NCBI GenBank assembly: GCA_036265915.1
Contig: DATAOC010000059.1
Coordinates: forward strand, 5 to 64,004
DNA length: 64,000 bases
Origin: Candidatus Methylomirabilota bacterium
GTDB lineage: Bacteria; Methylomirabilota; Methylomirabilia; Rokubacteriales; CSP1-6
Reading direction: 5' to 3'
Made by a program: the position numbers and the translations under genes. Under the pieces are notes generated by a model. It did no database searches and was not told where the DNA came from. It was given only the letters and a program-made list of their open reading frames with translations. Positions 10,307 through 44,249 of the stretch are shown here, one piece after another. Each line of letters begins with the position of its first letter. Within the stretch, counting starts at the first letter, position 1.

Positions 10307-10378
10307 CCGCGTACACTGACGTGGGCCCCCCGGCGCGGCATCCCGCCGCCCGCGGCCGTGCCCTTCCAAGGAGGAAAC

Positions 10379-11803: not shown

Positions 11804-11804
11804 C

Positions 11805-16975: not shown

Positions 16976-16977
16976 GA

Positions 16978-18297
16978 CTACTCGGGCGACGGCGTGCGCG
17001 AGCGGCGCACGCGGACGAGGACGTCGCGCGCGCGACCGCCGTCGACGGCGATCTCGACCTCGTGCCGCTCGACGTCCCAGTGCCGGATGGTCGTGAGCCG
17101 GCCGACGGCGAAGCCGGGCTCCGGAACGCGCCGCGTGGCGCGGTAGATCAGCGTGCGGCGGTCGCCGTCGCCGAGGCGCAAGCCCTGCTCGTCCGGCGGG
17201 CCGAGACGGCGGACGACGTCGTCGTACGTCGTCTCGCCGGGGCGGATGTCCTCGAGCGCGCCCGGGGCGAGGATCGACGTGCTTCCACCGGTGTCGCCGG
17301 CGCGGCGGAAGCGCAGTCGCGAGCGGACCAGGTGCGAGACGCGGCCGCTCAGGATCATGAGGCCGGTGACGTTGCCGAGCACGAGCAGCCCGAGAGAGAT
17401 CATCACCGGCCGCCACGCGAACCAGCCGCTGAAATAGGCGAATTGCACCTTGAGTGTCTGCGGGGTCGCGTCGTCGGCCGTATTGATCGGGATGGACACC
17501 GTCTCCGTCCCCGTGCGCACGCGGCTGCCGCGCCGGACGGCGGCAGCCGGCGCGATTTCCTCGATCCGCAGATGGTCGGCATCGGGGAAGCTGACGACGA
17601 GCAGCGAGTACTCGCGGGCCAGGTGCACGATCCGGTCGCGATTCTCGAAATAGAGCGGGTAGAGAGGCAGCGAGCCGACGTCGCCCCAGCTCATGGTGAC
17701 GACGTTGCGGCGGCCCCAGAACGTCTCTTCCAGCCACGTCGCCGGCTTCGGGCCGACCACGCCGCGCAACGGCAGGGCCAGCGTCACCACGAAGTGTGGA
17801 TTCCCGAGCTCCGGCGTCCACGGGATGCGCACGAGGGAGCCGCTGCCCGCCTGCGCGGGGGCGCCGCGCCGCACGAACGACACGAACGACGCGGTCACGT
17901 CGACCGGGTCGGCCGGCGTCGGCAGACCGAGCTGCGAGCGATCGCGCGCGCGTAGCAGCAGCCGGCCGCTGATCGTCGGGGCGAAGCCTCGGCTGTCGAC
18001 GTAGCGGAGGAGCTCGGCATCGGCGTCGCCGGGCGCCGTCCCGGCGGCGATCTCGGCGGGCCAGAACAGGTGGAGTACCTGTGCGGTCGGCCGGCGCCCC
18101 GACGGCCCGACCAGGTTCCAGGTCACGTTCACGGTCATCGGTCCCGCGTCGCGGGCGGCCGTGCCGGCCACGAACAGTGGACCGATGCTGACCGCCGCGT
18201 GAGGCTCGGCACTGAAGAACACCTGGGCACCCGCGGGCGAGGCAACGACGGTGGCGATCAGCACAGCGACGGCGAAGGCGGGCCATGCGCGGTGCAT
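16978..18297 (-). CDS. Hypothetical bitopic membrane protein (signal peptide, large periplasmic domain, one TM, C-terminal cytoplasmic domain)
   Basis: The signal peptide is MHRAWPAFAVAVLIATVVASPAGAQ. The TM helix is WRPVMISLGLLVLGNVTGLMIL. The C-terminus contains a BamE/SmpA-like IRPGETTYDDVVRRLGPPD segment. Confidence 0.6.
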   Translation of the reverse strand: MHRAWPAFAVAVLIATVVASPAGAQVFFSAEPHAAVSIGPLFVAGTAARDAGPMTVNVTWNLVGPSGRRPTAQVLHLFWPAEIAAGTAPGDADAELLRYVDSRGFAPTISGRLLLRARDRSQLGLPTPADPVDVTASFVSFVRRGAPAQAGSGSLVRIPWTPELGNPHFVVTLALPLRGVVGPKPATWLEETFWGRRNVVTMSWGDVGSLPLYPLYFENRDRIVHLAREYSLLVVSFPDADHLRIEEIAPAAAVRRGSRVRTGTETVSIPINTADDATPQTLKVQFAYFSGWFAWRPVMISLGLLVLGNVTGLMILSGRVSHLVRSRLRFRRAGDTGGSTSILAPGALEDIRPGETTYDDVVRRLGPPDEQGLRLGDGDRRTLIYRATRRVPEPGFAVGRLTTIRHWDVERHEVEIAVDGGRARDVLVRVRRSRTPSPE

Positions 18298-18304
18298 GCC
18301 GGTG

Positions 18305-18314
18305 ATTGTACAAT
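18305..18314. promoter_or_regulatory. Perfect 10 bp AT-rich palindrome ATTGTACAAT in a 30 bp divergent intergenic region
   Basis: It lies between start codons 18297 (minus strand) and 18328 (plus strand). It is the only AT-rich element there, so it is a candidate operator or shared -10 region. Confidence 0.3.
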
Positions 18315-18327
18315 CCGGGCTCACGTC

Positions 18328-20592: not shown

Positions 20593-21764
20593 AGACAGAC
20601 GCGGTTGCGGCCCGCGTCCTTGGCGCGATAGAGCGCGGCGTCGGCGGCGTCCAGCACGTCGGCGGGGCGGTCGCCGCTGCTCTTCGCGGAGGCGGCGCCG
20701 ATGCTGACCGAGACGGACACGCGCTGAACCGGGCGCATCGCGGCCGGCGCATCGGGCCGCTGGCGCGGGCGGTCCGGTGCCCGGAGTGCGAACCCGGTCG
20801 TCTCGATGCGGTGGCGCAGCGCCTCGAGATGCGGCACCGTCTCGTCAACCGACGCGTCGTCGAAGATGATCGCGAACTCCTCGCCGCCGTATCGGAACGC
20901 GCGGCCGCCGCCGCCCACCTCTCCCAGTCGCGCGCCGACCATGCGCAGGAGCTGGTCGCCGACGTCGTGGCCGTAGGCGTCGTTGAACTTCTTGAAGTGG
21001 TCGATGTCGACCATCGCGATCGTGTAGACACCGTTGAGACGGCCGAGGGCCTCGGTGAGCGCCCGCCGTCCCGGCAGCCCGGTGAGCTCGTCGCCGTAGG
21101 CGATGACGTAGGAGGCCTCGACGAGCGACACGGCGAGGACGAGCCCGGCACCGGCGAACGCGATCGACGCGAGCGGCGGCGAGCCCGTGGCGAACGCCAG
21201 CATGGCGGCGACGAGCGTCCACAGCGTGCCGCACTCGATCGGGTAGGGCCGGGCCGCCGCGCGCGTGGCCGCGAGCGCGATGGCGGCCGCGAATGTTGCC
21301 AGTCCGGCGGCGCCCAGATGCCAGCCGCCGAGCGGTGTCCCGAGCAGGGCGGCCAGCGGGACGGCCTCCGGCTGAATTGCCAGCGTGGTCAGGACGGCCT
21401 GCGTTCCGAGCAGGCCGAGGATCCAGCCAGCGGCGGATCGAAAGCCGAAGCGCTCGGGCAGCCAGCCCAGCACGCCGACGTTGAGCGGTAGCCACACGGC
21501 GGCGGCACCGAGCACGATGTGGGCGACGGCCGAGTCGGCGGTGAACCAGACGAGCCGTTCGGCGGCGGCCAGCAAGAGCACCACGAAGAACACGCGATAG
21601 CGGCGAAAGCGAAGGGCGAGGACGACACCGGCGGCGAAGGCGGCGTTGGGATACGCCGGCACGAAGGTTTCCGCGGTCGCCCGCCACGCGGGGACGACCA
21701 GCAGGAGGATGGTGGCGACCACGAGCACGCCACCCGGCAGCAGCCGTTGCGCGAAAGTCTTCAC
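20589..21764 (-). CDS. Membrane-bound diguanylate cyclase (multi-TM N-terminal domain plus GGDEF)
   Basis: The GGDEF domain has the motifs DIDHFKKFNDAYGHDVGD, RYGGEEFAI and ALYRAKDAGRNRV. GTG 21764 overlaps the upstream stop as GTGA. Confidence 0.85.
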   Translation of the reverse strand: MKTFAQRLLPGGVLVVATILLLVVPAWRATAETFVPAYPNAAFAAGVVLALRFRRYRVFFVVLLLAAAERLVWFTADSAVAHIVLGAAAVWLPLNVGVLGWLPERFGFRSAAGWILGLLGTQAVLTTLAIQPEAVPLAALLGTPLGGWHLGAAGLATFAAAIALAATRAAARPYPIECGTLWTLVAAMLAFATGSPPLASIAFAGAGLVLAVSLVEASYVIAYGDELTGLPGRRALTEALGRLNGVYTIAMVDIDHFKKFNDAYGHDVGDQLLRMVGARLGEVGGGGRAFRYGGEEFAIIFDDASVDETVPHLEALRHRIETTGFALRAPDRPRQRPDAPAAMRPVQRVSVSVSIGAASAKSSGDRPADVLDAADAALYRAKDAGRNRVCL

Positions 21765-22252
21765 GACCCTCGGCCGGGACGGATGTGCAGATGGCAGCAT
21801 CCCTCGCGTCCCGGCTGCCACGTGTCCGCCGAGAACTCGAACCCGGCGGCCTCGAACGTCCCGTTGTCGACGCGGCCCGCGATCCGGCAGAGCGTCGCGA
21901 TGTCCGTCTCCGGCACGCCGGCCTCGTGCCACGCGTCCTTCAGCGGGCAGCGCTGGAGCTGGATGTCGAGCGCCGTGGCATCGCAACGCTCGACCCGGGG
22001 AGAAAACATCCGGCCGTCGTCGGGCACGCCGCCCACGAAGGCATCGCGCAGCCCGGCGAGATCCGCCGGGCCGAAACGCCGGAACTGCCGGCCGATCTCC
22101 CGGCCCCGCGCCTCGATGGCGCGGGACAGGAGACCGGTCGCCTGCGGCTCGCCCACCGCGCGCCGAAGCTCGGCGAAAACGTGCCAGTACATCAGCGCAC
22201 GGTTCTTGAACGCGGCGTACAGCTCGCCGCGCAGGCGATCCGCGTCGACCAT
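21761..22252 (-). CDS. L-2-amino-thiazoline-4-carboxylic acid (ATC) hydrolase-like protein
   Basis: It is small and Cys-containing, with the C-terminal pattern CPLKDAW..LCRIAGRVDNGTF..EGCCHLHI that I associate with PF14196-type proteins. The start shares 1 nt with the stop of the binding-protein gene. Confidence 0.45.
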   Translation of the reverse strand: MVDADRLRGELYAAFKNRALMYWHVFAELRRAVGEPQATGLLSRAIEARGREIGRQFRRFGPADLAGLRDAFVGGVPDDGRMFSPRVERCDATALDIQLQRCPLKDAWHEAGVPETDIATLCRIAGRVDNGTFEAAGFEFSADTWQPGREGCCHLHIRPGRGS

Positions 22253-27899: not shown

Positions 27900-30587
27900 T
27901 CAGGACGTGGCGGCGGGGACGGGCGCCTCGCCGTCGACGCGCAGCGGCAAGATCACGCTGAAGGTCGTCCCCTTGCCGAGCTCGCTCTGGACGTCGATCG
28001 TCCCGCCGTGGCTCTGCACGATCCCGAGACTGACGGACAGCCCCAGGCCGGTGCCGCTCACCTCGGGCTTCGTCGTGAAGAACGGATCGAAGATCCGATC
28101 CCGGTGCTCGGGCGCGATGCCGGGTCCCGTGTCCTCGAAGTCCACGCGCACGCCGCGACTGTCCGCCGCGGTCCGGACGGTGAGGGAGCCGCCATTGGGC
28201 ATCACGTAGACGGCGTTGTTGATGATGTTGAGGAACACCTGCTTGATGCGTGACACGTCGAGCTCGGCGCCCGGCAGGTCGGGTGCGTACTGCTCGTTGA
28301 CCGTCACGCTGCCGAACGCGCCCTGGCGCCGCACCATCGTGATCACCTGCTCGAGCACCTGGTTGAGGCTCGCCGTCTCCGGCATGAAATCGCGCTGACG
28401 GCTGAATTGCAGCAGGTCGCGGACGATGTCACGAGCGCGCGAGGCCTCGTCCTGGATGAGTGTCAGCTCCTCGCGCATCGGATCCTCGGGCTTGAGGCGC
28501 TCGGCGATGAACGACGCGAAGCCGAGCACCGTGGTGAGCGGATTGTTGATCTCGTGCGCGATGTTGGCGGCGAGCTCACCGATGGCGGCGAGCTTGGTCG
28601 ATTGCACGAGCTGCGCCTGGGTCTGCTTGAGCTCGGTCATCTGCTGCTTGACGCCCGCGTACAGCCGCGAGTTCTCCACCGCGAGCGCGCCCTGCAGCGC
28701 GATGCCTTCGGTGAGTCGCAGCTCCTCGGACGTGAAGCGATGCGCCTCGCGCAGCCAGAGCACCGAGAAGGCACCGATCAGCTCGCCTTTCCAGCGGATG
28801 GGCTGGATGAGGAGCGACTTGTGCTCGATGAGCGGGGTCAGGGCGCCGTCGCTCCACGGCTGCGTCTGCCCGTCGGTGGCGGTCACCGGTGTCGCGAGGC
28901 CGCCGACTTTCGCCAGGAACGGATCGTCGACCCTCAAGGTGGCGGCCTCCGCCTTGCCCAGCAGATCCTTCGGGACGTGGTAGCCGACGAGCGGCACGTA
29001 GCGGTCGCGCGTCGGCGTCAGCAGCCACGCCATGCCGGTGTCGGCGCCGAGCGCGCGCACCATCTCGCGGGTCGTGCGGCGAAGCACCTCGGTGAGGTCG
29101 AGGGTCGATCCAACGGCCTGACTCACGGACACGAGCGTCTCGGTGTGACGCAGTCGCAGCTCTGTCTCCTCATGCAGCCGGGCGTTGCGAATGCCGACGG
29201 CCGCCGAGGTTCCGAGCGCCTGCGCGAGTGCGACCTCCTCCTGCTGGAACTCACGACGCTGCCGGCTCCAGCAGAGCAGCACGCCGATCGGGGTGCTGTC
29301 CAAAACGAGGGGGACGCCGACGAAGGAGACGAGACCTTCGGCCTGTGCCCACTCGCGCTCGCGGAAGCGCGGGTCCACCAATAGATCCGGCAGCACCAGC
29401 GGCGCGAGGTGCTCCATCAGCCAGCCGACGGCGCCCTCGCCGGCGGCGAAGCGCATACGCGCGAGCGCCGGCTTCCCGGCGAGGCCCGACTGCGCGGCCA
29501 GCCGGTATTCCGTGTCGGCCTCGTGCAGCCAGATGCGCACGACGTCGACGCCGAGCCGGGTACGCACGAGCTCGGTGAAGCGCTGCAGCACCTCGCGGAC
29601 GTGCAGTGAGCCGGCCAGCAGGTGCCCCGCCTCCACCAGGCTCTCCTGCTCGGCCGCGCGGCGGACGACGCCCTCGTAGAGGCGGGAGTTCTCGACGGCG
29701 ATCGCGACCTGGTTGGCCACGATGTTCAGCAGCTGCTCCTCATCCGCCTTGGCGCCCGGCGGCAGCACGAGGCGCGCGGTCATCTGCCCGAGTGGTCGTC
29801 CGCGGACGGCGAGCGGCAGCCGCCACTCCGTCTCGCTCCAGTCTTCCGCCGGGGCCACTCGCGTGCCCGCCAGCACGCTGCGCGGCCGATCGGCGATGGA
29901 CTCGGCGGTGACCTCCACGTGGACGTCGCTGTCGAGCATGTCGACGGCCATGAACGTCGTGCCCAGGGCGCGGCCGAGGTTCGGCAGGAGCTGCTCGAGC
30001 ATGGCGCGGACGCCCACCTCGGACGTGATGTCCTGGACCGAGCGATGGAGATCGGCGAGCTGGCCTGCGCGCCGGACGAAATGCTGGTTCAGCCGCTTGA
30101 GCTCCTCCACCTGGTTGACGAGCCGGTACACGAGTCGCTGGTTCAGCTCGCGCAGATAGACGCTCTGCTCCTTCTCCTCCACCCGCTCGCGCTTGCCCTG
30201 CATGAATTCGGCGACCTGGCGCGGAAACGCGTCGACGTCGATCGGCTTCTGAATGTAGCCGTCGCAGCCGGCCACCAGCGTCCGCTGACGGTCGCCCTCC
30301 ATCGCATAGGCAGTGACGGCGATGACCGGGGTCGTCGCGAACGCCGGGAACGATTTGATGATGGCCACGACCTCGTACCCGTCGACCGCGGGCAGGTTCA
30401 CGTCGAGCAGGATCAGCGCGGGCTCCTCCCGGACGGCGGCCTCGATGCCCGAGAGGCCGTCCTCGGCATCGATGACCGTGTAGCCCTCGGCCTCCAGGAC
30501 CGCGCGCACGAGCATGCGATTTTCGCGGTTGTCCTCGACGTGGAGGATCTTGGCGCGACTGCCGTCCCTGCGCACCGGTGCGGGCAT
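27900..30587 (-). CDS. Hybrid sensor kinase: N-terminal receiver, coiled coil, two GAF domains, HisKA and HATPase_c
   Basis: The REC domain has ILLDVNLPAVDG. The H-box is IAHEINNPL. N, G1 and G2 boxes are present (NIINNAVY, DTGPGI, GTGLGL). Confidence 0.85.
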   Translation of the reverse strand: MPAPVRRDGSRAKILHVEDNRENRMLVRAVLEAEGYTVIDAEDGLSGIEAAVREEPALILLDVNLPAVDGYEVVAIIKSFPAFATTPVIAVTAYAMEGDRQRTLVAGCDGYIQKPIDVDAFPRQVAEFMQGKRERVEEKEQSVYLRELNQRLVYRLVNQVEELKRLNQHFVRRAGQLADLHRSVQDITSEVGVRAMLEQLLPNLGRALGTTFMAVDMLDSDVHVEVTAESIADRPRSVLAGTRVAPAEDWSETEWRLPLAVRGRPLGQMTARLVLPPGAKADEEQLLNIVANQVAIAVENSRLYEGVVRRAAEQESLVEAGHLLAGSLHVREVLQRFTELVRTRLGVDVVRIWLHEADTEYRLAAQSGLAGKPALARMRFAAGEGAVGWLMEHLAPLVLPDLLVDPRFREREWAQAEGLVSFVGVPLVLDSTPIGVLLCWSRQRREFQQEEVALAQALGTSAAVGIRNARLHEETELRLRHTETLVSVSQAVGSTLDLTEVLRRTTREMVRALGADTGMAWLLTPTRDRYVPLVGYHVPKDLLGKAEAATLRVDDPFLAKVGGLATPVTATDGQTQPWSDGALTPLIEHKSLLIQPIRWKGELIGAFSVLWLREAHRFTSEELRLTEGIALQGALAVENSRLYAGVKQQMTELKQTQAQLVQSTKLAAIGELAANIAHEINNPLTTVLGFASFIAERLKPEDPMREELTLIQDEASRARDIVRDLLQFSRQRDFMPETASLNQVLEQVITMVRRQGAFGSVTVNEQYAPDLPGAELDVSRIKQVFLNIINNAVYVMPNGGSLTVRTAADSRGVRVDFEDTGPGIAPEHRDRIFDPFFTTKPEVSGTGLGLSVSLGIVQSHGGTIDVQSELGKGTTFSVILPLRVDGEAPVPAATS

Positions 30588-30599
30588 GGAGTGTTCCTT

Positions 30600-32744
30600 C
30601 TATGACGCCGCCGCGGTCAGCGGCAGCGTGAAGTGAAACGTCGAGCCCTGGTTCTCCCGGCTTTCCGCCCAGATGCGGCCCCGGTGAAGCTCGACGAACT
30701 TCTTGCTGATGGCCAGGCCCAGCCCCGTTCCGTCTGCTTGCTGTGCCAGCGGGTTGTCGAGCCGCTGGAAGGGCTCGAACAGCCGCGCGAGGTCGGACGG
30801 GGCGATGCCGATGCCGGTGTCCGCCACCGACACGTGAAGCGCGTCCGGCTCGCGCCGTACCTGGACGAGCACGCGGCCGGCCGCGGTGAACTTGATCGCG
30901 TTCGAGACGAGGTTCAGCAGCACCTGCCTGACGCGCGTGCGATCCGCGTAGACGTCCGGGAGGTCGACGGGGACATCCTTCTCCACCTTCACGCGCTTCT
31001 CGCGCACGAGCGGCAGCGACGACTCGATGCATTCATCGACGATGGCATGCAGGCTGACCTTCTCCGGCCGCATCTCGAACTTGCCGGCCTCGATCCGCGA
31101 GAAGTCCAGGATGCCGTTGATGAGCTCCAGGAGGTGACGGCTGGAGTTGTGCACCGACCGCACGTAGGCCTCCTGGCGCTCGGTGAGCTCACCGTCCAGC
31201 CGGTTCAGCAGCACCTTCGAGAAGCCGATGATCGAGTTCAGCGGCGTCCGCAGCTCGTGCGACATGTTGGCCAGGAACTGCGACTTCAGGCGACTGGCCT
31301 CCATCAGCCGGACGTTCGACGTCGACAGGCCCTCGTACAGCCTCGCGTTTTCCAGCGAGATGGCGGCCTGGTTGGCGAGCAGCGAGAGAACGTCGAGCTC
31401 CTGCGCGTCGAAGATCTCCCCGGACAGCTTCTCGCCGAGGAGGAGGATGCCGTTCAGCTTGTTGTCGATCCGCAGCGGCACGATGAGCGACGCCTTGACG
31501 GCTTCGAGCTCGCCCTCCGCCGCCTCGAAATATCGGGCGATGCGCGGATTGAGCTTGACCTCTTCCTTGACGAGCAGCCCTTCGTTGTCCGTGAGCCACT
31601 GGACGATCGGATTGTCGACGCGGATGGAATCCAGCCCGGAGCCCTCGTCGAGCGTCGTCTCCTCGCGGTAGTTCACGAACATGTTCGTGGCGGCATCGTG
31701 AATCATCAGGCCGGCATGCGTCACCGGGATTCCGCGCACGAGACCGTGCACGAGCGTGTCGACGAGCTCGTTGAAATTGAGGATGCCGCTCATGCGCTTG
31801 CTGAGCGACAGGAGAGTCTCGTAGCAGCCCTGCCGCTTGCTGAACATGACGCGGTGGATCCGGTCTTCGAGGAGCTGGCCCCACGGCGACAGCAGCACGG
31901 TCACCATGAAGCCCAGCGGCACCACCACCCAGATCGTGTCGATGTCGCTGAGGTTGAAGTAGTTCTCGATCGTCCGCGTCACCGCGTACAGCACGGCCGT
32001 GATGACGGCTCCCACCACGCCGTACACCGCGGCCTTCTTCACGGCGAGGTCGACCGCGAACAGCCGGTAGCGAACGATCGATGTTCCGAGCATCAAGGCG
32101 AAGATCATGTTGGCGGGGATGCCGATCGGGTACAGCTGGTCGGCGACGGGGATGTACTTGGCCACCATGAACCGCGCGAAGTCGATGACACCGCCGGCGA
32201 GACTGACCAGCGTGCCCAGCAGAATGAGCGTCCCGCGGTTGCGGCGGAAGCTCGAATCGGCGCCGTGCTCGGCCGTCACCATGAGGCGGAGGCCGTAGAT
32301 CATGAAGGTGTTGAACGCCAGGAAGAACGGGATGTAGAGCGGCCCGGTGGCCGGCGCCCAGCCCCAGTACGTCCACACCACGCCCTTCATGAAGAGCGGG
32401 GTGCCGCTGAGGTTCACGACGGTGTAGAGGAACGAGACGCCATATGCGAGCACCAGCGAGGGGCGATGGCGCGTGGTGGCGTCCAGGAAGATCAGGACGA
32501 AGTGATAGTGGAAGGCGGGGACGAGCAGCACGCCGACGTGGATGACGAACTCGGCGAACATCGCCGCGCTGGCGTCCGGGGCGGAGCGCAGCATGAAGAC
32601 CCCGATGTTCCAGAGCGCGATGGCGGAGGCAAAGTAGGCGAAGACGCGATTGAGTCGGCTGCCCGGGTTCCTGAGCAGGGACAGCGCGGCCAGGGTGACG
32701 TTCAGGAAGAAGGCGAAGAGTGGAAGAAGACTATGCGGGCTCAA
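30600..32744 (-). CDS. Sensor histidine kinase with N-terminal 7TM sensor region, GAF, HisKA and HATPase_c
   Basis: The 7TM N-terminus reads LFAFFLNVTLAALSLLRNP..NRVF. The H-box is MSHELRTPLNSIIGF, and DTGIGI and GTGLGL boxes are present. Confidence 0.85.
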   Translation of the reverse strand: MSPHSLLPLFAFFLNVTLAALSLLRNPGSRLNRVFAYFASAIALWNIGVFMLRSAPDASAAMFAEFVIHVGVLLVPAFHYHFVLIFLDATTRHRPSLVLAYGVSFLYTVVNLSGTPLFMKGVVWTYWGWAPATGPLYIPFFLAFNTFMIYGLRLMVTAEHGADSSFRRNRGTLILLGTLVSLAGGVIDFARFMVAKYIPVADQLYPIGIPANMIFALMLGTSIVRYRLFAVDLAVKKAAVYGVVGAVITAVLYAVTRTIENYFNLSDIDTIWVVVPLGFMVTVLLSPWGQLLEDRIHRVMFSKRQGCYETLLSLSKRMSGILNFNELVDTLVHGLVRGIPVTHAGLMIHDAATNMFVNYREETTLDEGSGLDSIRVDNPIVQWLTDNEGLLVKEEVKLNPRIARYFEAAEGELEAVKASLIVPLRIDNKLNGILLLGEKLSGEIFDAQELDVLSLLANQAAISLENARLYEGLSTSNVRLMEASRLKSQFLANMSHELRTPLNSIIGFSKVLLNRLDGELTERQEAYVRSVHNSSRHLLELINGILDFSRIEAGKFEMRPEKVSLHAIVDECIESSLPLVREKRVKVEKDVPVDLPDVYADRTRVRQVLLNLVSNAIKFTAAGRVLVQVRREPDALHVSVADTGIGIAPSDLARLFEPFQRLDNPLAQQADGTGLGLAISKKFVELHRGRIWAESRENQGSTFHFTLPLTAAAS

Positions 32745-33411
32745 TGACGTTCCGCTCGGAGTCCTCGGGGAGAGGAAGCGCGACGACGTCGCGCCGGCGC
32801 ACCGCGGCGATCTCCTCGCCGAGGATGCCGAAGACGACCACGTCCCAGTACCGGGAGCCGTCGTACCCCGCCTGCCGCAGCACGCCTTCCTGGTGAAAGC
32901 CGTTCCGCCGCAGCGAGTTCATGCTCAGGACGTTGTACTCGTAGACCTTGGCCTCGAGTCGCCGGAGCCCCAGCACGTCGACGCCATAGTACGAGATGAG
33001 CTTGCCCGCCTCGACGCCGAAGCCCCGACGGATGGCGCGCGAGTCCGCGATGATCGTCTCGAGAAAGGCGTAGCCCTCGAGCATGTGGATGTTGAAGAGC
33101 CGCACGAGCCCTACCGGCTTCGCGAAACCGCCGATGCAGGCCTCCACCATCAGCACGACCTGGCTCGGGTCATTCAGCACCGCGTCGTAAAAGCCGGCGC
33201 CCTTGTCCCAGTCGTGCTTGAACGCGTGGAGGAACTCGCTGCCGACCATGCGCTCGATGAAGGGGTCGTCGACCCAGCTCGCGAGGTGGTCGAGGTCGCG
33301 AGGCGTGAAGGTCCGCAGGTAGACGCGGAGGCCGCGGGCGATGACAACGTGGTCAGCGCGCACTCGCGCGCGCGGCGGGGCCTCCGCCGGGCGGCGCTGC
33401 GTCGTGATCAT
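32731..33411 (-). CDS. GNAT family N-acetyltransferase (RimJ/RimL-like)
   Basis: It has an acetyl-CoA binding-type segment RRGFGVEAGKLISYYGVDVLGLRRLEAKVYEYN..S..L.RNGF. The gene overlaps the kinase start by 14 nt. Confidence 0.6.
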   Translation of the reverse strand: MITTQRRPAEAPPRARVRADHVVIARGLRVYLRTFTPRDLDHLASWVDDPFIERMVGSEFLHAFKHDWDKGAGFYDAVLNDPSQVVLMVEACIGGFAKPVGLVRLFNIHMLEGYAFLETIIADSRAIRRGFGVEAGKLISYYGVDVLGLRRLEAKVYEYNVLSMNSLRRNGFHQEGVLRQAGYDGSRYWDVVVFGILGEEIAAVRRRDVVALPLPEDSERNVIEPA

Positions 33412-33538: not shown

Positions 33539-34210
33539 CTAGAACGTGATCTCGAATCTCACCGTGGGATAGCCGAGCGCCTTCTCGTCGTCCCGCACCT
33601 TCTCCCACGAGTAATCGTCGAGCAGGTAGAGCGGCTGCAGGCACGCCGCCGGCGGCTCGCTCGAGGCGCGGCAGTACGCGGCCATGCTCGGATCCGCGAT
33701 CGGAGCCGTCGGGAGCCGGAACGTGCCGGTGAACGGAACGCGGTCGCCGCGGTCCAGCGCCATCGTCCCGTGCACGTATCCCAGCGGCACCGAGTGGAGG
33801 ATGGCCGGGCTGAAATCCATGCGTCCCGAGAATGCGCCCTTCGCGACCACGACTTCCGGGCTGTCGAATGGATTGACGTCCTGCACGACCACCGTGAACG
33901 TGCCGCCGAAGTGGCCGCGGCCGGTCTTCAGGTTGATGTTGTCCGCGCCCGTCGCATTCAGCGTGCAGAATCCGGCGCCGGGATTGACCTTCGCCACCAG
34001 GTCCGCCGGGCAGAGCGGTGAGCCGACCAGCGCATAGCCCATCAGCTCGGACGTCGCTCGCCGCGCCGGAGATCTCCACGCGGTGATCGTCATGTTCTCG
34101 GTGAGCTCGTAGAGCCACGCCTGCGGTTTCTCTCCGGCGTAGCCGGGAGTCACGCCTGCAACCGTCGCGAGAAGTAGCGCGGCTACCGCGGCCTTTATCG
34201 ACGTCTTCAT
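33539..34210 (-). CDS. Secreted hypothetical protein (four Cys, C-terminal ...VRFEITF)
   Basis: A GGGAGGG SD lies upstream of ATG 34210. The signal peptide is MKTSIKAAVAALLLATVAGVTPGYAG. I recognise no family. A predicted sigma-54 promoter lies 41 nt upstream. Confidence 0.65.
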   Translation of the reverse strand: MKTSIKAAVAALLLATVAGVTPGYAGEKPQAWLYELTENMTITAWRSPARRATSELMGYALVGSPLCPADLVAKVNPGAGFCTLNATGADNINLKTGRGHFGGTFTVVVQDVNPFDSPEVVVAKGAFSGRMDFSPAILHSVPLGYVHGTMALDRGDRVPFTGTFRLPTAPIADPSMAAYCRASSEPPAACLQPLYLLDDYSWEKVRDDEKALGYPTVRFEITF

Positions 34211-34258
34211 CGAACGCCCTCCCACACTGAGATCCCGCTGGTGCGGGATGCCCAGTGC

Positions 34259-34278
34259 AGAGCAAGGCGGGTACCAAA
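34259..34278 (-). promoter_or_regulatory. Sigma-54 promoter P2 (TTTGGTACCCGCCTTGCTCT)
   Basis: The minus-strand sequence matches TGGCAC-N5-TTGCW at the invariant GG (-24) and GC (-12) with exact spacing. It is 19/20 identical to the element at 40145..40164. A 7 bp stem hairpin (34232-34249) sits at the predicted transcript start. Confidence 0.7.
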
Positions 34279-34435
34279 GCTGCGGATGGTTCGTAAGCTT
34301 CTGAATCAGCAGATAATTCCGACGCTGCGAGCTCGCCGGAGGGACGGCCGGCTGGTTGATTCATGATCGAATCGTCGGTGCACGGCGGCATCGGTCGGCC
34401 GGTATCTGACCAGCGCCCGACGGCTTGCGGTTGAC

Positions 34436-35209
34436 TCACGTGCGGCTGCGGACCCACGCCAGCCGGCTGATCCCGGCCAGGAAGGTCTCCCGCGAATCGA
34501 GGATTTCGAAGCCGGCTGCGCCGAGTGCCCCGTGAAACGACGTCTCGCTGAGGTAGCGGCGGTCGACGTGCCGCAGCATTTCGAACAGGGCCGTGGGCAG
34601 CAGCCAGCGCAGCGAGCGGAACGCCTGTCCGATCCCTTTGCTTGCCCGCACGTCAGCGAATGTCTGTGCCACGTGGGCGGGCCGCGAATAGGTCAGGAAG
34701 ACGGCGTGTCCCCCCGGCTTCAGCAGCCGGCGGCAGGCCGCAATCACGGCGTCGGGCCGGGGGTGCCAGTACAGCGTATGCATGCTGACGATGACGTCGT
34801 AGCGCGCCGTCTTCGAGGCGGCCGCGCTTGCGACATCGGCGTGCTCGAAGCGCAAGGAGGCGGTCGGCTCGTGCCGGCGCCGCGCGACGTCGATGAGGTG
34901 CGCGACCACGTCGATCCCGGTCACGTCGTAGCCGCGCGCGGCGAGTCGGGCCGCCACGGTTCCGACGCCGCAGGAGACGTCGAGCACCGCCGGCGGCGGT
35001 CCCGAGGGCTTCGGCCGCGCGGAGCGGTCGACATACGCGAATACCTCGTCGAGCAGGGCTTCGTAGGGCGGAAACCCGGAAACGACCGCGTCGTACGTGA
35101 GACCGTAGCCCATGGCGAGCAGCCGCTCGGAGCGGTGCATGAGCGCGCGCGGCCCACCGGTGGCGATCTCGGGGTCGACGATGTCGCGCCGGGCCGCGTT
35201 GCCGCTCAT
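34436..35209 (-). CDS. Class I SAM-dependent methyltransferase (second of a tandem pair)
   Basis: It has SAM motif I (VLDVSCGVGT), post-I (DVTGID) and a LLKPGGHAVF motif. The ATG shares 1 nt with the upstream TGA (TGATG). Confidence 0.8.
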   Translation of the reverse strand: MSGNAARRDIVDPEIATGGPRALMHRSERLLAMGYGLTYDAVVSGFPPYEALLDEVFAYVDRSARPKPSGPPPAVLDVSCGVGTVAARLAARGYDVTGIDVVAHLIDVARRRHEPTASLRFEHADVASAAASKTARYDVIVSMHTLYWHPRPDAVIAACRRLLKPGGHAVFLTYSRPAHVAQTFADVRASKGIGQAFRSLRWLLPTALFEMLRHVDRRYLSETSFHGALGAAGFEILDSRETFLAGISRLAWVRSRT

Positions 35210-36009
35210 CAGTCCGTGGTGTCCTTCCGCGCCCACATGAGGATGCTCGCGTCGTTGAGAAACGTCCGACGCGTCTCGAGCACCGTGAAGCCGGCCGCGC
35301 GCAGATTCGCGGCGAAGCGGGCCTCGTCCCAGTAGTGCGGTCCGATGCGCCGACGTGCGGCCTCGAAGATGGAGTTCGGAGCGAGCCAGAGCAGGCTCGA
35401 CAGTGCGGGCTGCAGCCCCTCGCGGCGCTTGATGTCCTTGAACGTCGACCACTGCGCCACCTGGCGCGCGTGATTGACGAAGATCGCGTGGCCCCCCGGC
35501 TTCAGGATGCGATGGGCCTCCTTCAGCACGGTCTCCGGCGCCGGATGAGCGTACAGCGAGTGGATACTCACGACGCCGTCGAACGCGGCGTCGCGGATGC
35601 CGGCGCCGTCGGTCAGGTCGCCGTGCCGGAAGGCGAGGTTCGCGAGCCGCTTCGCCCGCCGCTTCTCGCGCGCGAGCTCCACGAGCGCCGCGTACGACTC
35701 CAGGCCAATGGCGTTGAATCCGGCCTCCGCCAGGACGAACGTGAAGTTCCCGGGGCCACAGCCGATGTCGAGAACGTGCAAATCACGTCGCAGCGTGCCC
35801 TCTCGAACGCCGGCGGTCACCAGCGTGAGGACCTCGGCCTGGAGCTGCTGGTACGGGCGGAAACGCTCATAGATGTAGTCGTACACGAGGCCGTAGCCGA
35901 CGGACAGCATCCGGTCGACGCCCCAGCGCACGCCGCCCAGCACCGAGCCCACCAGTCCATCCGGGGCCGCCGCCGTCCGGCGCGCCGGTGCGCGTGTCTG
36001 CGTCTGCAT
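35209..36009 (-). CDS. Class I SAM-dependent methyltransferase (first of a tandem pair)
   Basis: It has VLDIGCGPGN and ILKPGGHAIF motifs and is a paralogue of the downstream gene along its whole length. The start overlaps the upstream stop as TGATG. Confidence 0.8.
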   Translation of the reverse strand: MQTQTRAPARRTAAAPDGLVGSVLGGVRWGVDRMLSVGYGLVYDYIYERFRPYQQLQAEVLTLVTAGVREGTLRRDLHVLDIGCGPGNFTFVLAEAGFNAIGLESYAALVELAREKRRAKRLANLAFRHGDLTDGAGIRDAAFDGVVSIHSLYAHPAPETVLKEAHRILKPGGHAIFVNHARQVAQWSTFKDIKRREGLQPALSSLLWLAPNSIFEAARRRIGPHYWDEARFAANLRAAGFTVLETRRTFLNDASILMWARKDTTD

Positions 36010-36398
36010 CAGCGCGTCTCCTGACCCCGCTCCGCGAGCACCTTCTCGACGGTGCCGCGAAGCTCGTCCGACGTGAACGGCTTCAACAGGATCGAGGCGA
36101 AGCCGAGGCGGTTTGCTTCATCGACGATGTCCGGCGTGCCGTGACCGGTGACGAGCACGACCGCGAGATCGGGATGGAGCGTTCGCGCCTCGGCAAAGAC
36201 CTCGAAGCCGGTCAAGCCTGGCATCTTGTAGTCGAGGACCACGAGGTCGAAGGGCTCCTTGCGCAGGATCTCGAGGGCCGCCTCGCCGCGATTGGCCCCT
36301 TTCACGGCGTAGCCGAGCGCCTGCAGGACGTTGACGCACAGCACCACGACCGGGCCGGCGTCGTCGACGATGAGGATCTTCCGCCGCGTCGACGTCAT
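36009..36398 (-). CDS. Single-domain CheY-like response regulator
   Basis: The motifs are KILIVDD, the phospho-acceptor region LVVLDYKMPGLTG, and LLKPF. The start overlaps the upstream stop as ATGA. Confidence 0.85.
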   Translation of the reverse strand: MTSTRRKILIVDDAGPVVVLCVNVLQALGYAVKGANRGEAALEILRKEPFDLVVLDYKMPGLTGFEVFAEARTLHPDLAVVLVTGHGTPDIVDEANRLGFASILLKPFTSDELRGTVEKVLAERGQETR

Positions 36399-37927
36399 TG
36401 CGCGTGCGCGAAGGCGCGCACGGCGAGATCGGCCGGCAGGGGCGCGCTGGTGAGGGAGTCGTAGTGTCGCGTGATCTCCACGAGACGCTCGACACCGATC
36501 GACAGGAACGCGTCGGCGGCGTCGGGATCGAAGTGGGTGCCGCGGCCGCGGACGATCTCCGCGCGCGCGGCCTCGACGCCCAGGGCCGTACGGTACGGAC
36601 GATTCGAGGTCACCGCGTCGAAGACGTCGGCGACGGTGATGATTCGCGCCGCCTGCGGGATGCTGGCCCCACTGAGACCGTCCGGATAGCCGCTGCCGTC
36701 GAAGCGCTCGTGATGGTGCCGAACGGCGCACGCCTCGCGCGCCAGGAATCGCAGCGGCTTGAGGATTCGCTCGCCCACCACGGGATGTGCCTTGATGAGC
36801 GTGAACTCCTCGGCGGTGAGCCGCTCCGGCTTTCGCAGGATCGTGTCCATGATCGAGAGCTTTCCGAGATCGTGCAGCATCGCGGCCCGGTTCACCATCT
36901 CCACGGTGTCGTCATCGAGTCGCATGGCGCGGGCGATCTCGGTCGCGTAGAGCGCGACGCGGGCGGAGTGACCTTTCAGGTACGGGTCCTTCGACTCGAT
37001 GGCGTTGACGAACGCCGTGATCGTGTCGACGAGATTCCTCTCGTGATCCTCGCGGAGCACGAGCTTCTGCAGCGCGACCGCCGTCGCCTGTGCGAACCCG
37101 ACCACCATATCGCGCTCGTCGGGAAGGAAGGCCAGGCTGGCGGCGAGACGGCCGACGGCCAGCACCCCGAGCGACTGACCGACGCCGGGAATCAGCGCGG
37201 CCACCGCTTCGACCCGGCCACCGGAGCGACGCAGCGAGAGCGCCTCGCGCCCCCCGTGGGTCATCAGCGCGTCGAAGTTCGCCTGGAGCAGCGTGCGCAG
37301 CTCGTCCACCACGCTCGGATCGCCGTGCTGGGTGGTCGTGAACACGCCGTGCTCGTCACGCACGAGGATCAACGCGCCGTCGTTGCGCAGCGATTCGCCG
37401 GTGAGCTGCAGCACCTTCTCGACGAACACGCGCGGCTCCTGAGTCTGGAGCGCGAGGTCGCCGATCCGGAACAGCATGTCCACGCTGACCTGTCGGCGCG
37501 CCAGCTCGTCGGCGAGTCCGGCCGGCAGCGGGGTCTGTCCGTTCCACTTCTCGCGATCAGCGCGGACGCGGGCCACGAGCTGCTGCACCTCCTTGATCGA
37601 GAACGGCTTCGGCAGGTAGTCGTAGGCGCCGTGGCGCAGCCCGAACACGGCGGAATTCACCGAGGGTGCACCGGTGATCAGTACGACCGGCGTCGCCGGC
37701 TGCCGACTCTTCACCGCGCGTAGCAGGTCGAGGCCCGAGAGCCCCGGCATCTTGATGTCCGAGACGACCAGATCGAAATCGTTCGCGGCGATGAGCTCGA
37801 GCGCCTGCTCGGCCGTGGGCGCGGGTGTCACCGCGCACGCGTTGGCGCTGAAGGCGGACACAAGAAACCGGAGCAGCGACGCATTGTCGTCGACGGCGAG
37901 CACCCGGAGGGCTGGAGACGACGTCAT
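36395..37927 (-). CDS. Response regulator with receiver, GAF-like middle region and HD-GYP c-di-GMP phosphodiesterase domain
   Basis: The REC domain has LVVSDIKMPGLSG. The HD-GYP domain has HSARV..MLHDLGK..HHERFDGSGYP. An AGGAAGGA SD precedes ATG 37927, 14 nt after the upstream TAG. Confidence 0.85.
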   Translation of the reverse strand: MTSSPALRVLAVDDNASLLRFLVSAFSANACAVTPAPTAEQALELIAANDFDLVVSDIKMPGLSGLDLLRAVKSRQPATPVVLITGAPSVNSAVFGLRHGAYDYLPKPFSIKEVQQLVARVRADREKWNGQTPLPAGLADELARRQVSVDMLFRIGDLALQTQEPRVFVEKVLQLTGESLRNDGALILVRDEHGVFTTTQHGDPSVVDELRTLLQANFDALMTHGGREALSLRRSGGRVEAVAALIPGVGQSLGVLAVGRLAASLAFLPDERDMVVGFAQATAVALQKLVLREDHERNLVDTITAFVNAIESKDPYLKGHSARVALYATEIARAMRLDDDTVEMVNRAAMLHDLGKLSIMDTILRKPERLTAEEFTLIKAHPVVGERILKPLRFLAREACAVRHHHERFDGSGYPDGLSGASIPQAARIITVADVFDAVTSNRPYRTALGVEAARAEIVRGRGTHFDPDAADAFLSIGVERLVEITRHYDSLTSAPLPADLAVRAFAHAQ

Positions 37928-37941
37928 CGTGTCCTTCCTGC

Positions 37942-40101
37942 CTATTTCCCGGCAGCCATCTGGTTGAGAAACTCCATCCACTGGCGCGTCAGTACGCCAT
38001 CGTTGGGGAACCGCAGTCCGTCGAACCCTTCCGGCACCGCAGACTCGGCGGCCGGCTTGGACGCGGCTGGCTCGCTCGCCGGCGCCGATGTTGCGGGGAC
38101 GGCGGCCGGCGTCGACGGGGTCTCGGCGGTCGGCGCCGGTGCGGGAGCGATCGAGCGTTTCGGCTGAGGGCCAGACTTGCCGGCCGTGATCGGATTCGGG
38201 TCCGGCTGGCTGGGCGGCGCGATGGTGCGCGGTCGCTTGAAGGCGCCGTTCGGCTTGGCGAATGCCGTGGACCGATCCTCCGCGGCCGCCGCTGGCTTGT
38301 CAGTCACACCGACCAGGTCGCCAAGCGTCGCGCGCGTGATCTCCTCCACGGAGCGGCGATCGACAGCCGCCACGGGCTCCGGTGCCTTCGCCGCCGCCGG
38401 GAGGTTCAGCAAATCTTTCGCGACGTCCGCGAACGACACCTTGGGATCCGCGCCGCGCGCAAACGGACTGCGCGGTGCCGGCGCAGCGCGTTCGGGGAGC
38501 GGCTGGCTCGCGGCCACCGGCGCCAGCGGCTGGTGAGGCGGATCCACCAGCGTCAGCCGCGGCTCGCGCTGGAGCGTCGGTATCGCCGGCCGCTCGCTGG
38601 ATTCGACTTCCGCGCGCGTCACAATCGTGTCCGTGGCAGCCGTCTGGAGCTCGAGCGGCGGCACGCTCACCGACTCTTCTGACGTCTCGGCCATCGCCGA
38701 GGTCTGGAGCTCGAGCGGGCCGACCGTGGCGACGTCGTGCGGCATGGACTCCACCGAGACGGGCTCGATCGTGGCGGCGTCGCTCCCGACGGGTTCGAGC
38801 TCCATCGCGACGACCGGCGGCTCGATTGCCCAGGGCTGAGCATCGATCGCGCGTGGATCTGGCTCCATCGTCAGCGCGTCGCGCGCGCTCGGCGCCGGCT
38901 CCATCTCCATCTCTATCGCCACCGGCTCGAACGGCATTCCTTTCGGCTCGGGCTCGCTCGCGACCGGCTCGAGCGGCACTGCGATCGGCTCGGGTTCGAT
39001 CGCTACACGATCCACTGTGTCTCGGGACGGCTCCGCCTCGACCGCCACCGGCTCCATTGCAAACGCGACCGCCTCCGGCTCGATGGCCAAAGGCTGTGCG
39101 TCGACCGCGGTGGGCTGCAGCGCCAGGGGCTCGAGATCGGCCGCTTCGACGTGCGAGTTGGCGCTCCAGGGCACGAACTCGAGCGAAGATCCCGCGTCGA
39201 CGACCGGCGGGCTCGGCTCGGCGACGGGCGCGGCGGCGAGATCGGCGCCGCGAAGCGGCTCCTGCATCGCGTGCGCGTCGTCGGCGGCACCGCTGAGCGC
39301 CCGCGGGTCGACGGTTACCGTGTCCACAGCGGCGACAGTGGCCGCCGCACTCACGGCCGGCGGCTCGGCGATCTCCAACGTAGGCAGCGGAGGCGGCGGC
39401 ACGACGACGATCGCGGGCGCAGCCGTCGCGTCCACTCGCGGTGCGCTCCAAAGCGCCCGCGGCGCTTCGGTGCGGGAGACGTTACGCTTCAGGAGGCTCA
39501 GAATCGGTCCCGGCTCACGGGCTGGTGCGGGCCGATCACCGGTGAGCAGCTTCTGGAGCTTCACGCTCGTCGGCCGTCCGGTCGGCACCGCGGGCGCGGG
39601 CGGCGTGACGCGCTCGACCGGCGCCGGCGCGGCGGCGGGTGCGCGGCGCAGCCGGGCCAGGGTCTCGAAATAGACGGCGGGCGTTCCGTCGACGTCGAGG
39701 TAACGGAACTCCACGCAGTCGACCTGCGGAAAGCCCAGCTGCTTGATCTTCCGGTGAAAGGCATCGGGCATGCGCTCGATCACGAACAGCAGGCGCGGCG
39801 GGTATGCCGTCGAGATCCGCGCGGCCGGATAGAGACGGTGGATCGCCTCGGGATACTCGAGGCACCACGAGTACGCCTCGACGGCGCGTAGCAGCATCTC
39901 TTCGTCTGCGGTGAAGCCGACGGCGATGAGCGCGAGCGCCCCGTCGGTGTCGAGTCCGACGATGTCCATCGTGGCCTGGCCGAGCATGAGCCGGGAGTCG
40001 AGGACAGAAAGCCCGGGCTCGATGCGGTCGACGTGGTCGATGACCAGCGCCTGCAGCTGCCCGACATCCGCGAGTTCCCGCTTCTTGATCACGCCCTTCA
40101 T
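37942..40101 (-). CDS. Protein with an N-terminal degenerate NucS/PD-(D/E)xK-like domain, a roughly 500-residue Pro/Ala/Glu-rich disordered region and a short conserved-looking C-terminal peptide
   Basis: The N-terminus IEPGLSVLDSRLMLGQATMDIVGLDTDGALALIAVG follows NucS C-domain topology, but E-x-K is replaced by A-V-G. It is followed by EP/AP-rich degenerate repeats and the C-terminus FPNDGVLTRQWMEFLNQM. I prefer ATG 40101 (GAGGAA SD) because the sigma-54 promoter at 40145-40164 lies inside the longer ORF versions (40131, 40194). Confidence 0.65.
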   Translation of the reverse strand: MKGVIKKRELADVGQLQALVIDHVDRIEPGLSVLDSRLMLGQATMDIVGLDTDGALALIAVGFTADEEMLLRAVEAYSWCLEYPEAIHRLYPAARISTAYPPRLLFVIERMPDAFHRKIKQLGFPQVDCVEFRYLDVDGTPAVYFETLARLRRAPAAAPAPVERVTPPAPAVPTGRPTSVKLQKLLTGDRPAPAREPGPILSLLKRNVSRTEAPRALWSAPRVDATAAPAIVVVPPPPLPTLEIAEPPAVSAAATVAAVDTVTVDPRALSGAADDAHAMQEPLRGADLAAAPVAEPSPPVVDAGSSLEFVPWSANSHVEAADLEPLALQPTAVDAQPLAIEPEAVAFAMEPVAVEAEPSRDTVDRVAIEPEPIAVPLEPVASEPEPKGMPFEPVAIEMEMEPAPSARDALTMEPDPRAIDAQPWAIEPPVVAMELEPVGSDAATIEPVSVESMPHDVATVGPLELQTSAMAETSEESVSVPPLELQTAATDTIVTRAEVESSERPAIPTLQREPRLTLVDPPHQPLAPVAASQPLPERAAPAPRSPFARGADPKVSFADVAKDLLNLPAAAKAPEPVAAVDRRSVEEITRATLGDLVGVTDKPAAAAEDRSTAFAKPNGAFKRPRTIAPPSQPDPNPITAGKSGPQPKRSIAPAPAPTAETPSTPAAVPATSAPASEPAASKPAAESAVPEGFDGLRFPNDGVLTRQWMEFLNQMAAGK
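38642..38718 (-). repeat. Direct repeat of a 17-mer GTCTGGAGCTCGAGCGG with a 60 nt period inside the disordered-region coding sequence
   Basis: Identical 17-mers at 38642-38658 and 38702-38718 encode the repeated peptide PLELQT 20 residues apart. Confidence 0.8.
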
Positions 40102-40144
40102 CCGTCGTTCCTCGCGATCGTCTCCGCTCATGTCGGCCGGTGGA

Positions 40145-40164
40145 AGAGCAAAGCGGGTACCAAA
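40145..40164 (-). promoter_or_regulatory. Sigma-54 promoter P1 (TTTGGTACCCGCTTTGCTCT)
   Basis: The GG at 40161/40160 and the GC at 40149/40148 have canonical spacing. It is the twin of the element at 34259-34278. It lies about 150 nt downstream of the NtrC-type activator gene and 36-45 nt upstream of ATG 40101. Confidence 0.7.
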
Positions 40165-40294
40165 CGTCCGGTCTCGCTCAAGGTCTGGACTCATCAGCGC
40201 TATTCGATCTGATTGCCCGGGCGGATGCCCGCGGGTGGCCGATTTCTGGCCGCCAGTTCGCCGCCTGCATTCTGGCCAGGCGGTGAGGAAGTGA

Positions 40295-40313
40295 CCGCGC
40301 CCCCTAGGCGCGG
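40295..40313 (-). terminator. Hairpin directly after the NtrC-type gene stop
   Basis: CCGCGCC (40295-40301) and GGCGCGG (40307-40313) form a 7 bp stem with a 5 nt loop, 2 nt from the TAA at 40315-40317. There is no U-tract. Confidence 0.4.
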
Positions 40314-41664: not shown

Positions 41665-41829
41665 GCTCTAGCGATCTTAGCGTAGAGGCCTTCTCGGCAA
41701 GAAATTCACCATGCGCGGCTCGCTTCGATACTCCGCGGCCAGCAACCGACCAGCGAGCCAGCTCGCCGACGCGGCGGCGATCGACGAGGAAATACGCGCG
41801 CTTGCCCGCAGCACGCTTCGCTTCCCGCA

Positions 41830-44133: not shown

Positions 44134-44149
44134 CGGCACCCGGTTTGCT
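44134..44149 (+). promoter_or_regulatory. Sigma-54-like element P3 (CGGCAC-CCGGT-TTGCT)
   Basis: GGCAC (44135-44139), then 5 nt, then TTGC (44145-48), located 5 nt after the E1 stop and 100 nt upstream of ATG 44250. It resembles P1/P2 (GGYACCCGNYTTGCT). Confidence 0.45.
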
Positions 44150-44159
44150 ATCCCATGGG

Positions 44160-44174
44160 GGAACGGAACGTTCC
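44160..44174. promoter_or_regulatory. GGAAC-GGAAC-GTTCC element (contains the perfect palindrome GGAACGTTCC 44165-44174)
   Basis: It lies at the predicted start of the P3 transcript and is preceded by the palindrome CCCATGGG (44152-44159). It is a candidate operator. Confidence 0.3.
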
Positions 44175-44249
44175 TCCGCGGTGGCGCGACCGCCAGCGGC
44201 CGCTGGTGGCTGCGGTGGTCGCTGCCGCCCGGGGGGCGAAGCAGCGATC

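Follow-up and report, generated by a model that had tools for sequence, protein, structure and literature searches.

The window, a 64-kb stretch of DNA, contains a gene for an enhancer-binding protein (EBP) of the NtrC family, hereafter the activator, and, downstream of it on the same strand, two groups of genes designated operons 1 and 2 (Table 1). Within the groups, neighboring genes are closely packed. In operon 1, the genes of the 719-aa protein and of the HD-GYP regulator are separated by 14 nt, 11 nt separate the latter from the receiver gene, and the stop codon of the receiver gene overlaps the next start. In operon 2, a gap of 127 nt follows the gene of the secreted protein, and the genes of the acetyltransferase and the first kinase overlap by 14 nt. 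Apart from this 127-nt gap, no neighboring genes of an operon are more than 14 nt apart, and the largest overlap is 14 nt, so the putative promoters P1 and P2 head compact operons. The gene beyond operon 2 is convergent and encodes a glucokinase. A scan for intrinsic terminators across 27–45 kb detected none between the two operons, so read-through from P1 into operon 2 is possible. When the entire window was searched against Rfam with gathering thresholds, no matches were obtained.

Table 1. Features of the locus and their positions in the window
Feature	Position	Strand	Sequence or assignment
Activator, NtrC-family enhancer-binding protein, 449 aa	40315..41664	-	Pfam Response_reg, Sigma54_activat, AAA_lid_14, HTH_8
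Two site A-like elements, 41 bp apart	41693-41713 and 41734-41754	-	13.8 and 15.3 bits
P_E1, apparent degenerate remnant of a divergent σ54 promoter	41805..41822	+	CAGCAC; spacer 2 nt shorter
P1 upstream site A	40279..40299	-	CGCGGTCACTTCCTCACCGCC; centre ~-153; 17.8 bits (top match in the window)
P1 upstream site B	40234..40254	-	GGCGGCCAGAAATCGGCCACC; centre ~-110; 17.4 bits
P1 IHF-like element	40178..40190	-	GTCCAGACCTTGA core; 2 mismatches to WATCARNNNNTTR; adjoins a stretch richer in A/T
P1, predicted σ54 promoter	40145..40164	-	TTTGGTACCCGCTTTGCTCT; GG 40161-40160 (-24), GC 40149-40148 (-12)
719-aa protein, first gene of operon 1	37942..40101	-	Rokubacteria-specific; predicted nuclease fold in N-terminal domain (~155 aa)
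Response regulator with HD-GYP-type domain (c-di-GMP phosphodiesterase type)	36395..37927	-	Pfam Response_reg, HD_5
Single-domain receiver protein	36009..36383	-	Pfam
SAM-dependent methyltransferase 1	35209..36009	-	Pfam
SAM-dependent methyltransferase 2, last gene of operon 1	34436..35209	-	Pfam
P2 upstream site A	34394..34414	-	GCTGGTCAGATACCGGCCGAC; centre ~-154; 14.7 bits
P2 upstream site B	34351..34371	-	TTCGATCATGAATCAACCAGC; centre ~-111; 23.5 bits (best match in the window)
P2 IHF-like element	34294..34306	-	ATTCAGAAGCTTA; 1 mismatch to WATCARNNNNTTR
P2, predicted σ54 promoter	34259..34278	-	TTTGGTACCCGCCTTGCTCT; GG 34275-34274, GC 34263-34262
223-aa protein with signal peptide, first gene of operon 2	33539..34210	-	no Pfam match
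GNAT acetyltransferase	32731..33411	-	Pfam
7TM-GAF histidine kinase	30600..32744	-	Pfam HisKA_7TM, GAF, HisKA, HATPase_c
REC-GAF-GAF histidine kinase, last gene of operon 2	27900..30587	-	Pfam

The activator has the complete architecture of a response regulator of the σ54-activating type, with a receiver domain (PF00072), a central AAA+ domain (PF00158, E-value of 4e-68), and a Fis-type helix-turn-helix (HTH) domain (PF02954). This confirmed the original prediction that an activator with a GAFTGA-type loop is encoded directly upstream of P1; the loop (residues 220–225) reads GAFTDA instead of GAFTGA, and AFTDA is found in 105 of 107 orthologs. The Walker A motif (GESGTGKE, residues 173–180) and the Walker B motif (LFLDE, residues 241–245) are present, and D53 corresponds in the alignment to the phospho-acceptor aspartate of NtrC4. 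The best PDB match is NtrC4 from Aquifex (4L4U, 1.5e-105), followed by NtrC1 (4.9e-100). When compared with the NCBIfam equivalogs (NtrC, AtoC, ZraR, NtrX, PEP-CTERM PrsR, and others), the protein scored below every cutoff, the best being AtoC (464 bits with a cutoff of 714), with NtrC (424/559) and PrsR (371/503) among the others.

The first gene of operon 1 encodes a 719-aa protein that gave no sequence match in Pfam, NCBIfam, or the PDB. Its 155 N-terminal residues have ~40 homologs that are 48–74% identical, all of metagenomic origin and none with a Pfam domain, and the sole homolog with a named source organism comes from Rokubacteria. The structure of this domain was predicted with a pLDDT of 90, and a Foldseek search with the model retrieved NucS/EndoMS (5gke, E-value of 2e-5). 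We can thus confidently predict a PD-(D/E)xK nuclease fold with NucS/EndoMS as its closest relative. The E-x-K motif is absent from the domain, both in the sequence and in the alignment. The remainder of the protein consists of ~500 residues rich in Pro, Ala, and Glu, variable in length and probably disordered, followed by a short conserved C-terminus. The long open reading frame (37942..40194) had been proposed to start at ATG 40101, and several observations agree on this codon: both the conserved sequence and the tblastn alignments start with residue 1 as counted from it, the region upstream of it contains indels whose lengths are not divisible by three, a ribosome-binding site precedes it, and gene callers chose it on three other contigs, with most independent calls in agreement. 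The start of this clade-specific gene can therefore be fixed at ATG 40101. The HD-GYP regulator encoded next in the operon matched the NCBIfam model of NosR-family response regulator c-di-GMP phosphodiesterases with 227 bits, below the cutoff.

The 223-aa secreted protein that is encoded first in operon 2 has 316 homologs, none of which carries a functional name. It is only 30–50% identical to its orthologs, compared with 70–90% for the products of the neighboring genes, it is missing in some lineages (loci L011, L106, and L109), and it contains invariant cysteines. Its predicted fold is β-rich (pLDDT of 92), and searches by PDB sequence, NCBIfam, and Foldseek returned no significant match (best E-value of 0.18). 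In many lineages the leader of its gene begins with a GC-rich hairpin whose sequence differs between lineages. A conserved RNA structure in the leader was considered and rejected, as RNAalifold gave no consensus structure and the leader in the window was no better than shuffled sequences (z of -0.2 at 34211–34250, minus strand, as compared with a significant -2.9 for the hairpin of locus L013 at 17160–17206; a further example lies in locus L015 at 16904–16965). The 7TM-GAF histidine kinase of operon 2 is a candidate for the kinase of the activator.

The elements P1 and P2 are located in intergenic DNA in the orientation of the genes downstream of them. The 20-mers are identical at 19 of 20 positions, with a single mismatch (T at 40152 and C at 34266), and are 5886 nt apart. 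Their 3′ ends lie 43 nt from ATG 40101 and 48 nt from ATG 34210, and a GGAG-type Shine–Dalgarno sequence stands ahead of each start codon. σ54 promoters resemble TGGCAC-N5-TTGCW, with the GG and GC dinucleotides exactly 10 nt apart, and transcription starts ~11–13 nt past the GC. P1 (TGGTAC-CCGCT-TTGCT) and P2 (TGGTAC-CCGCC-TTGCT) both conform to this spacing of 10 nt. In both, the -24 element is TGGTAC and differs from the canonical TGGCAC in the fourth position (T for C), with the GG intact. Thus, the near-identical minus-strand pair ahead of Shine–Dalgarno-preceded ATG codons and its fit to the GG/GC positions and spacing of the consensus, both noted in the original prediction, were reproduced in our analysis. 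The pattern TGGYAY-N5-TTGCW occurs in the 64-kb window at P1 and P2 only, with 0.05 occurrences expected. If the distance to the -12 GC is the usual one, the predicted start sites are at ~40136 and ~34250, and the leaders would measure ~35 nt for P1 and ~40 nt for P2.

Orthologous loci were collected from scans of metagenome and genome collections (80 and 28 loci), in which the activators are 67–96% identical. One locus labeled Vicinamibacteria (L110) was left out of the counts, which leaves 107 Rokubacteria loci; all other named loci belong to Candidatus Rokubacteria/Rokuibacteriota (Methylomirabilota). The next-best matches of the activator, from other phyla, are only ~44% identical, and an identical activator sequence is present on several soil-metagenome contigs. 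The ten-gene cluster is syntenic as a whole across the clade. Nearly all loci contain the strict pattern TTGGTAC-N5-TTGCT ~155 nt past the activator stop codon, and related loci contain a second copy ~5.2–5.6 kb farther downstream. When only GG-N10-GC within the relevant intergenic region was required, the motif was found at the P1 position in 97 of 97 loci in which the activator is followed by the gene of the 719-aa protein, and at the P2 position in 51 of the 53 loci that extend far enough past the second methyltransferase gene. An apparent absence of P2 in the nearest relatives, suggested by the pattern TGG[CT]A[CT], was rejected, because real variants such as TGGTCC are present there; the apparent absences of promoters correspond to truncated contigs or to the variants TGGTCC, TGGTAT, TGGCAC, and TTGCG.

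Among the orthologs there are 32 distinct 20-mers for P1 and 37 for P2. Across these distinct sequences, each position of TGGTAC and TTGCT is at least 81% conserved (at least 89% for P1), and the five spacer positions have no fixed base, being free at P2 and C-biased at P1. Conserved -24 and -12 blocks that flank an unfixed spacer are the footprint expected for a -24/-12 promoter. The motif is located 57–78 nt ahead of start codons in the related loci. Rokubacteria loci with a total length of 1.37 Mb contain 135 occurrences of the core motif, all of them on the gene strand, compared with an expectation of 0.03 for each strand. This strand distribution is not that of a dispersed repeat, an origin that would have undermined the promoter assignment. 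Judged from these sequence patterns, with the bipartite blocks kept and the spacer varying at both orthologous positions throughout the clade, P1 and P2 are almost certainly genuine σ54 promoters that are conserved across Rokubacteria, as had been proposed for the window.

Alignments of the upstream regions and anchored searches revealed two further elements, site A (motif cCTGGtCAGTTTCTngCCg) and site B (motif CGGttAGGAATCAnCCg, consensus CGGTTAGGAATCAGCCG). The two are spaced by 43 bp and are placed at fixed offsets from both promoters in all lineages; they have only a loose GG-TTyCT-CC core in common. Matrices for both sites were trained exclusively on the other loci and then run over the window. 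The site B matrix matched exactly twice, at 34351–34371 and 40234–40254, and among the matches of the site A matrix the element at 40279–40299 ranked first and that at 34394–34414 fifth. Site A of P1 adjoins a GC hairpin past the activator stop codon. The sites have the properties of upstream activator sequences (UASs), as they are paired, lie ~80–150 bp upstream in helical phase, and recur at promoters that would be co-regulated. Between them and the promoter, at ~-55 to -43, is an IHF-like element: in 52 of 102 dereplicated promoters, a match to WATCAR-N4-TTR (with at most one mismatch) begins ~28 nt ahead of the 20-mer, and such matches are found almost nowhere else. The A/T content reaches 70% at -40 to -31 of the promoters, compared with a G+C content of ~69% for the window. 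As read from the sequence, P1 and P2 appear to have the classic layout of UAS, IHF-like site, and σ54 promoter. Because this layout is common to both in detail, it provides the strongest argument at hand for a single regulator of the two transcription units. The earlier proposal of a single activator for the two units gains support from the same two elements at the same distances and from a site B matrix that matches nowhere else in the window.

The upstream region of the activator gene itself contains two site A-like elements. The proximal one corresponds to the clade-wide conserved CTTGGTgAtTTTCTTaaCGg and adjoins a σ70-type -10 element (TAAGAT at 41679–41674, minus strand; TAcAAT is the form in the clade) that ends 9 nt before the ATG. 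The position of a conserved A-like site beside a -10 element ~10 nt before the start codon suggests that the activator is autoregulated. The activator ATG has no Shine–Dalgarno sequence, and the arrangement suggests that the mRNA is leaderless or nearly so. In most relatives (e.g. L061, L069, L093, and L095), a third, divergent σ54-type promoter (TGGCAC-N5-CTCGCW) faces a transketolase/pyruvate-dehydrogenase-E1-like gene, ~133–146 nt from the activator start codon. Its UAS-like sites, ~85 and ~125 nt away from the -24 element, are placed at distances comparable to those at P1 and P2, and its A-like sites overlap the promoter of the activator. The local σ54 regulon had been described as consisting of two promoters. 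P1 and P2 bear this out for the window, but most relatives have the third promoter, which is degenerate here.

We consider it likely that P1 and P2 are RpoN promoters of two adjacent operons and are driven by the neighboring activator through sites A and B. According to this mechanism, the activator would be phosphorylated at D53, probably by both kinases of operon 2, and the phosphorylated protein would bind the paired sites A and B at each promoter. A bend at the IHF-like element (~-50) would bring it to the closed complex of RNA polymerase and σ54, and ATP hydrolysis with engagement of the GAFTDA loop would open the promoter. As operon 2 includes the genes of the kinases, its activation would create a positive feedback loop, and binding to the A-like sites over the σ70-type promoter of the activator would result in its autoregulation.

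An alternative is that P1 and P2 are σ54 promoters of which one or both are served by an EBP encoded elsewhere, with sites A and B binding another factor. Bacteria with large signaling repertoires commonly carry many σ54 activators, the activator fits no named equivalog, and its role as the binder of sites A and B, for which it is the parsimonious candidate, has been assigned by proximity and parsimony. Nevertheless, synteny of the activator gene with both promoters is maintained across the clade, the same pair of sites appears at these two promoters and at that of the activator itself, and no second activator of this kind was found in the window (in an open reading frame search and a Pfam analysis of ~20 other open reading frames at 1–27 and 45–56 kb). 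This arrangement is thus unlikely. The bipartite motif could also be the operator of another protein or a promoter of the σ70 or ECF type, a reading in line with the departure of TGGTAC from TGGCAC and with the absence of an RpoN-box signature (rpoN) from the open reading frames of the window and from all 164 fetched loci. σ70-family promoters have spacers of 16–18 nt, however, unlike the five variable bases and the exact GG-N10-GC found here, and a scan for σ70 promoters across 27–45 kb returned nothing promoter-like. In addition, the 135 to 0 strand bias and the distance to start codons place the motif consistently ahead of genes, beside a conserved activator with intact motifs, which makes such an identity very improbable.

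The similarity of the two 20-mers raises the question of whether they are a recent duplicate or a mobile repeat and resemble each other by common descent, since the 19/20 identity extends into the spacer. With up to three mismatches allowed, the 20-mer matches P1 and P2 only within the window, and two matches were obtained in 0 of 100 dinucleotide-preserving shuffles, in line with the original argument that such a recurrence is very unlikely by chance. The near-identity adds nothing beyond the clade consensus, as P1 and P2 are identical at only 13–16 of 20 positions in other lineages. In the nearest relatives, the orthologs have spacers of their own (CCCCC at P1 and TGGTCC-GCGCC at P2), and each is similar to its counterpart in the window and not to the other. 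The flanks of P1 and P2 can be aligned only at the functional blocks, and no further copies of the 20-mer were found. Taken together, these comparisons indicate that the 19/20 identity is the sum of the clade consensus and a chance agreement of the spacers, is not meaningful in itself, and does not point to duplication; a repeat origin is the least probable of the alternatives and hardly credible.

The proposed control of both operons by the neighboring activator is a known and ordinary design in a poorly studied phylum and is not surprising to a specialist. It is similar to the regulation of glnAp2 by enteric NtrC (NR-I), in which an activator with receiver, AAA+, and Fis-type HTH domains is phosphorylated by a histidine kinase, as would be the case here, and acts from tandem upstream sites ~100–150 bp from the σ54 promoter. 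In glnA-ntrBC, activator sites over a σ70 promoter mediate autoregulation, and the A-like sites are placed likewise. However, the NtrC site is TGCACC-N5-GGTGCA, in contrast to the GG-TTyCT-CC core, and the gene of its kinase is located beside that of the regulator, whereas the candidate kinases here are encoded in a target operon. NtrC targets nitrogen assimilation, as opposed to signaling proteins and proteins without assigned function, and by the NCBIfam score given above the activator is not an NtrC equivalog. The apparent layout here is that of the nif promoters of the NifA type, with the three parts UAS, IHF-type site, and -24/-12 promoter; the site here is IHF-like and close to the promoter, and the activator has a receiver domain in place of the GAF sensor of NifA. 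NtrC4 and NtrC1 from Aquifex aeolicus (4L4U and 1NY5) match over the full length and agree in the order of domains and in the catalytic motifs, but they belong to another phylum and have a GAFTGA loop. Most Rokubacteria relatives, with their divergent promoter and overlapping A-like sites, resemble divergent units of the ZraSR-zraP type that are served by one enhancer region. In the window, by contrast, the divergent promoter is degenerate, and the promoter of the activator looks σ70-type rather than σ54-type.

Rokubacteria are abundant in soil, the phylum has to our knowledge no cultured representative, and a literature search that included full texts found no relevant paper on Rokubacteria or Methylomirabilis together with σ54 or rpoN. 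The locus may therefore provide the first sequence-level view in Rokubacteria of σ54 promoters with their enhancer sites and of a complete local regulon. The clade consensus TTGGTAC-N5-TTGCT and the motifs of sites A and B can serve directly to mark the starts of operons in genome bins of Rokubacteria and to find additional targets there. More speculatively, the cluster could be a self-amplifying cassette specific to Rokubacteria, in which an autoregulated activator controls two to three σ54 operons as a switch of surface properties or lifestyle. The products of these operons would be its own kinases, a regulator of the c-di-GMP phosphodiesterase type, a catalytically dead NucS-like protein with its very long disordered region, and a rapidly diversifying, β-rich secreted protein that could serve the 7TM kinase as an extracellular partner or signal. 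We regard this broader reading as tentative and rather unlikely.

Outside the cluster, a σ54-like site (CGGCACCCGGTTTGCT) is present at 44134–44149 on the plus strand, 4 nt past the stop codon of the E1-like gene and ~100 nt before an eboA-like (EboA-domain) gene. Six close relatives retain the site, with differing spacers. No A or B site lies in its vicinity, and we regard it as no more than a possible promoter. It is followed by a conserved palindrome (GGAACG-GAA-CGTTCC) at 44157–44177 on the same strand. The ~20 other open reading frames analyzed with Pfam at 1–27 and 45–56 kb are ordinary metabolic and transport genes. The G+C content rises to 0.74 at 10001–12000 and 16001–22000, compared with ~0.69 for the window, and the stretch at 16–22 kb contains a gene of the molybdopterin-binding aldehyde/xanthine-oxidase type (17956–20592, plus strand).
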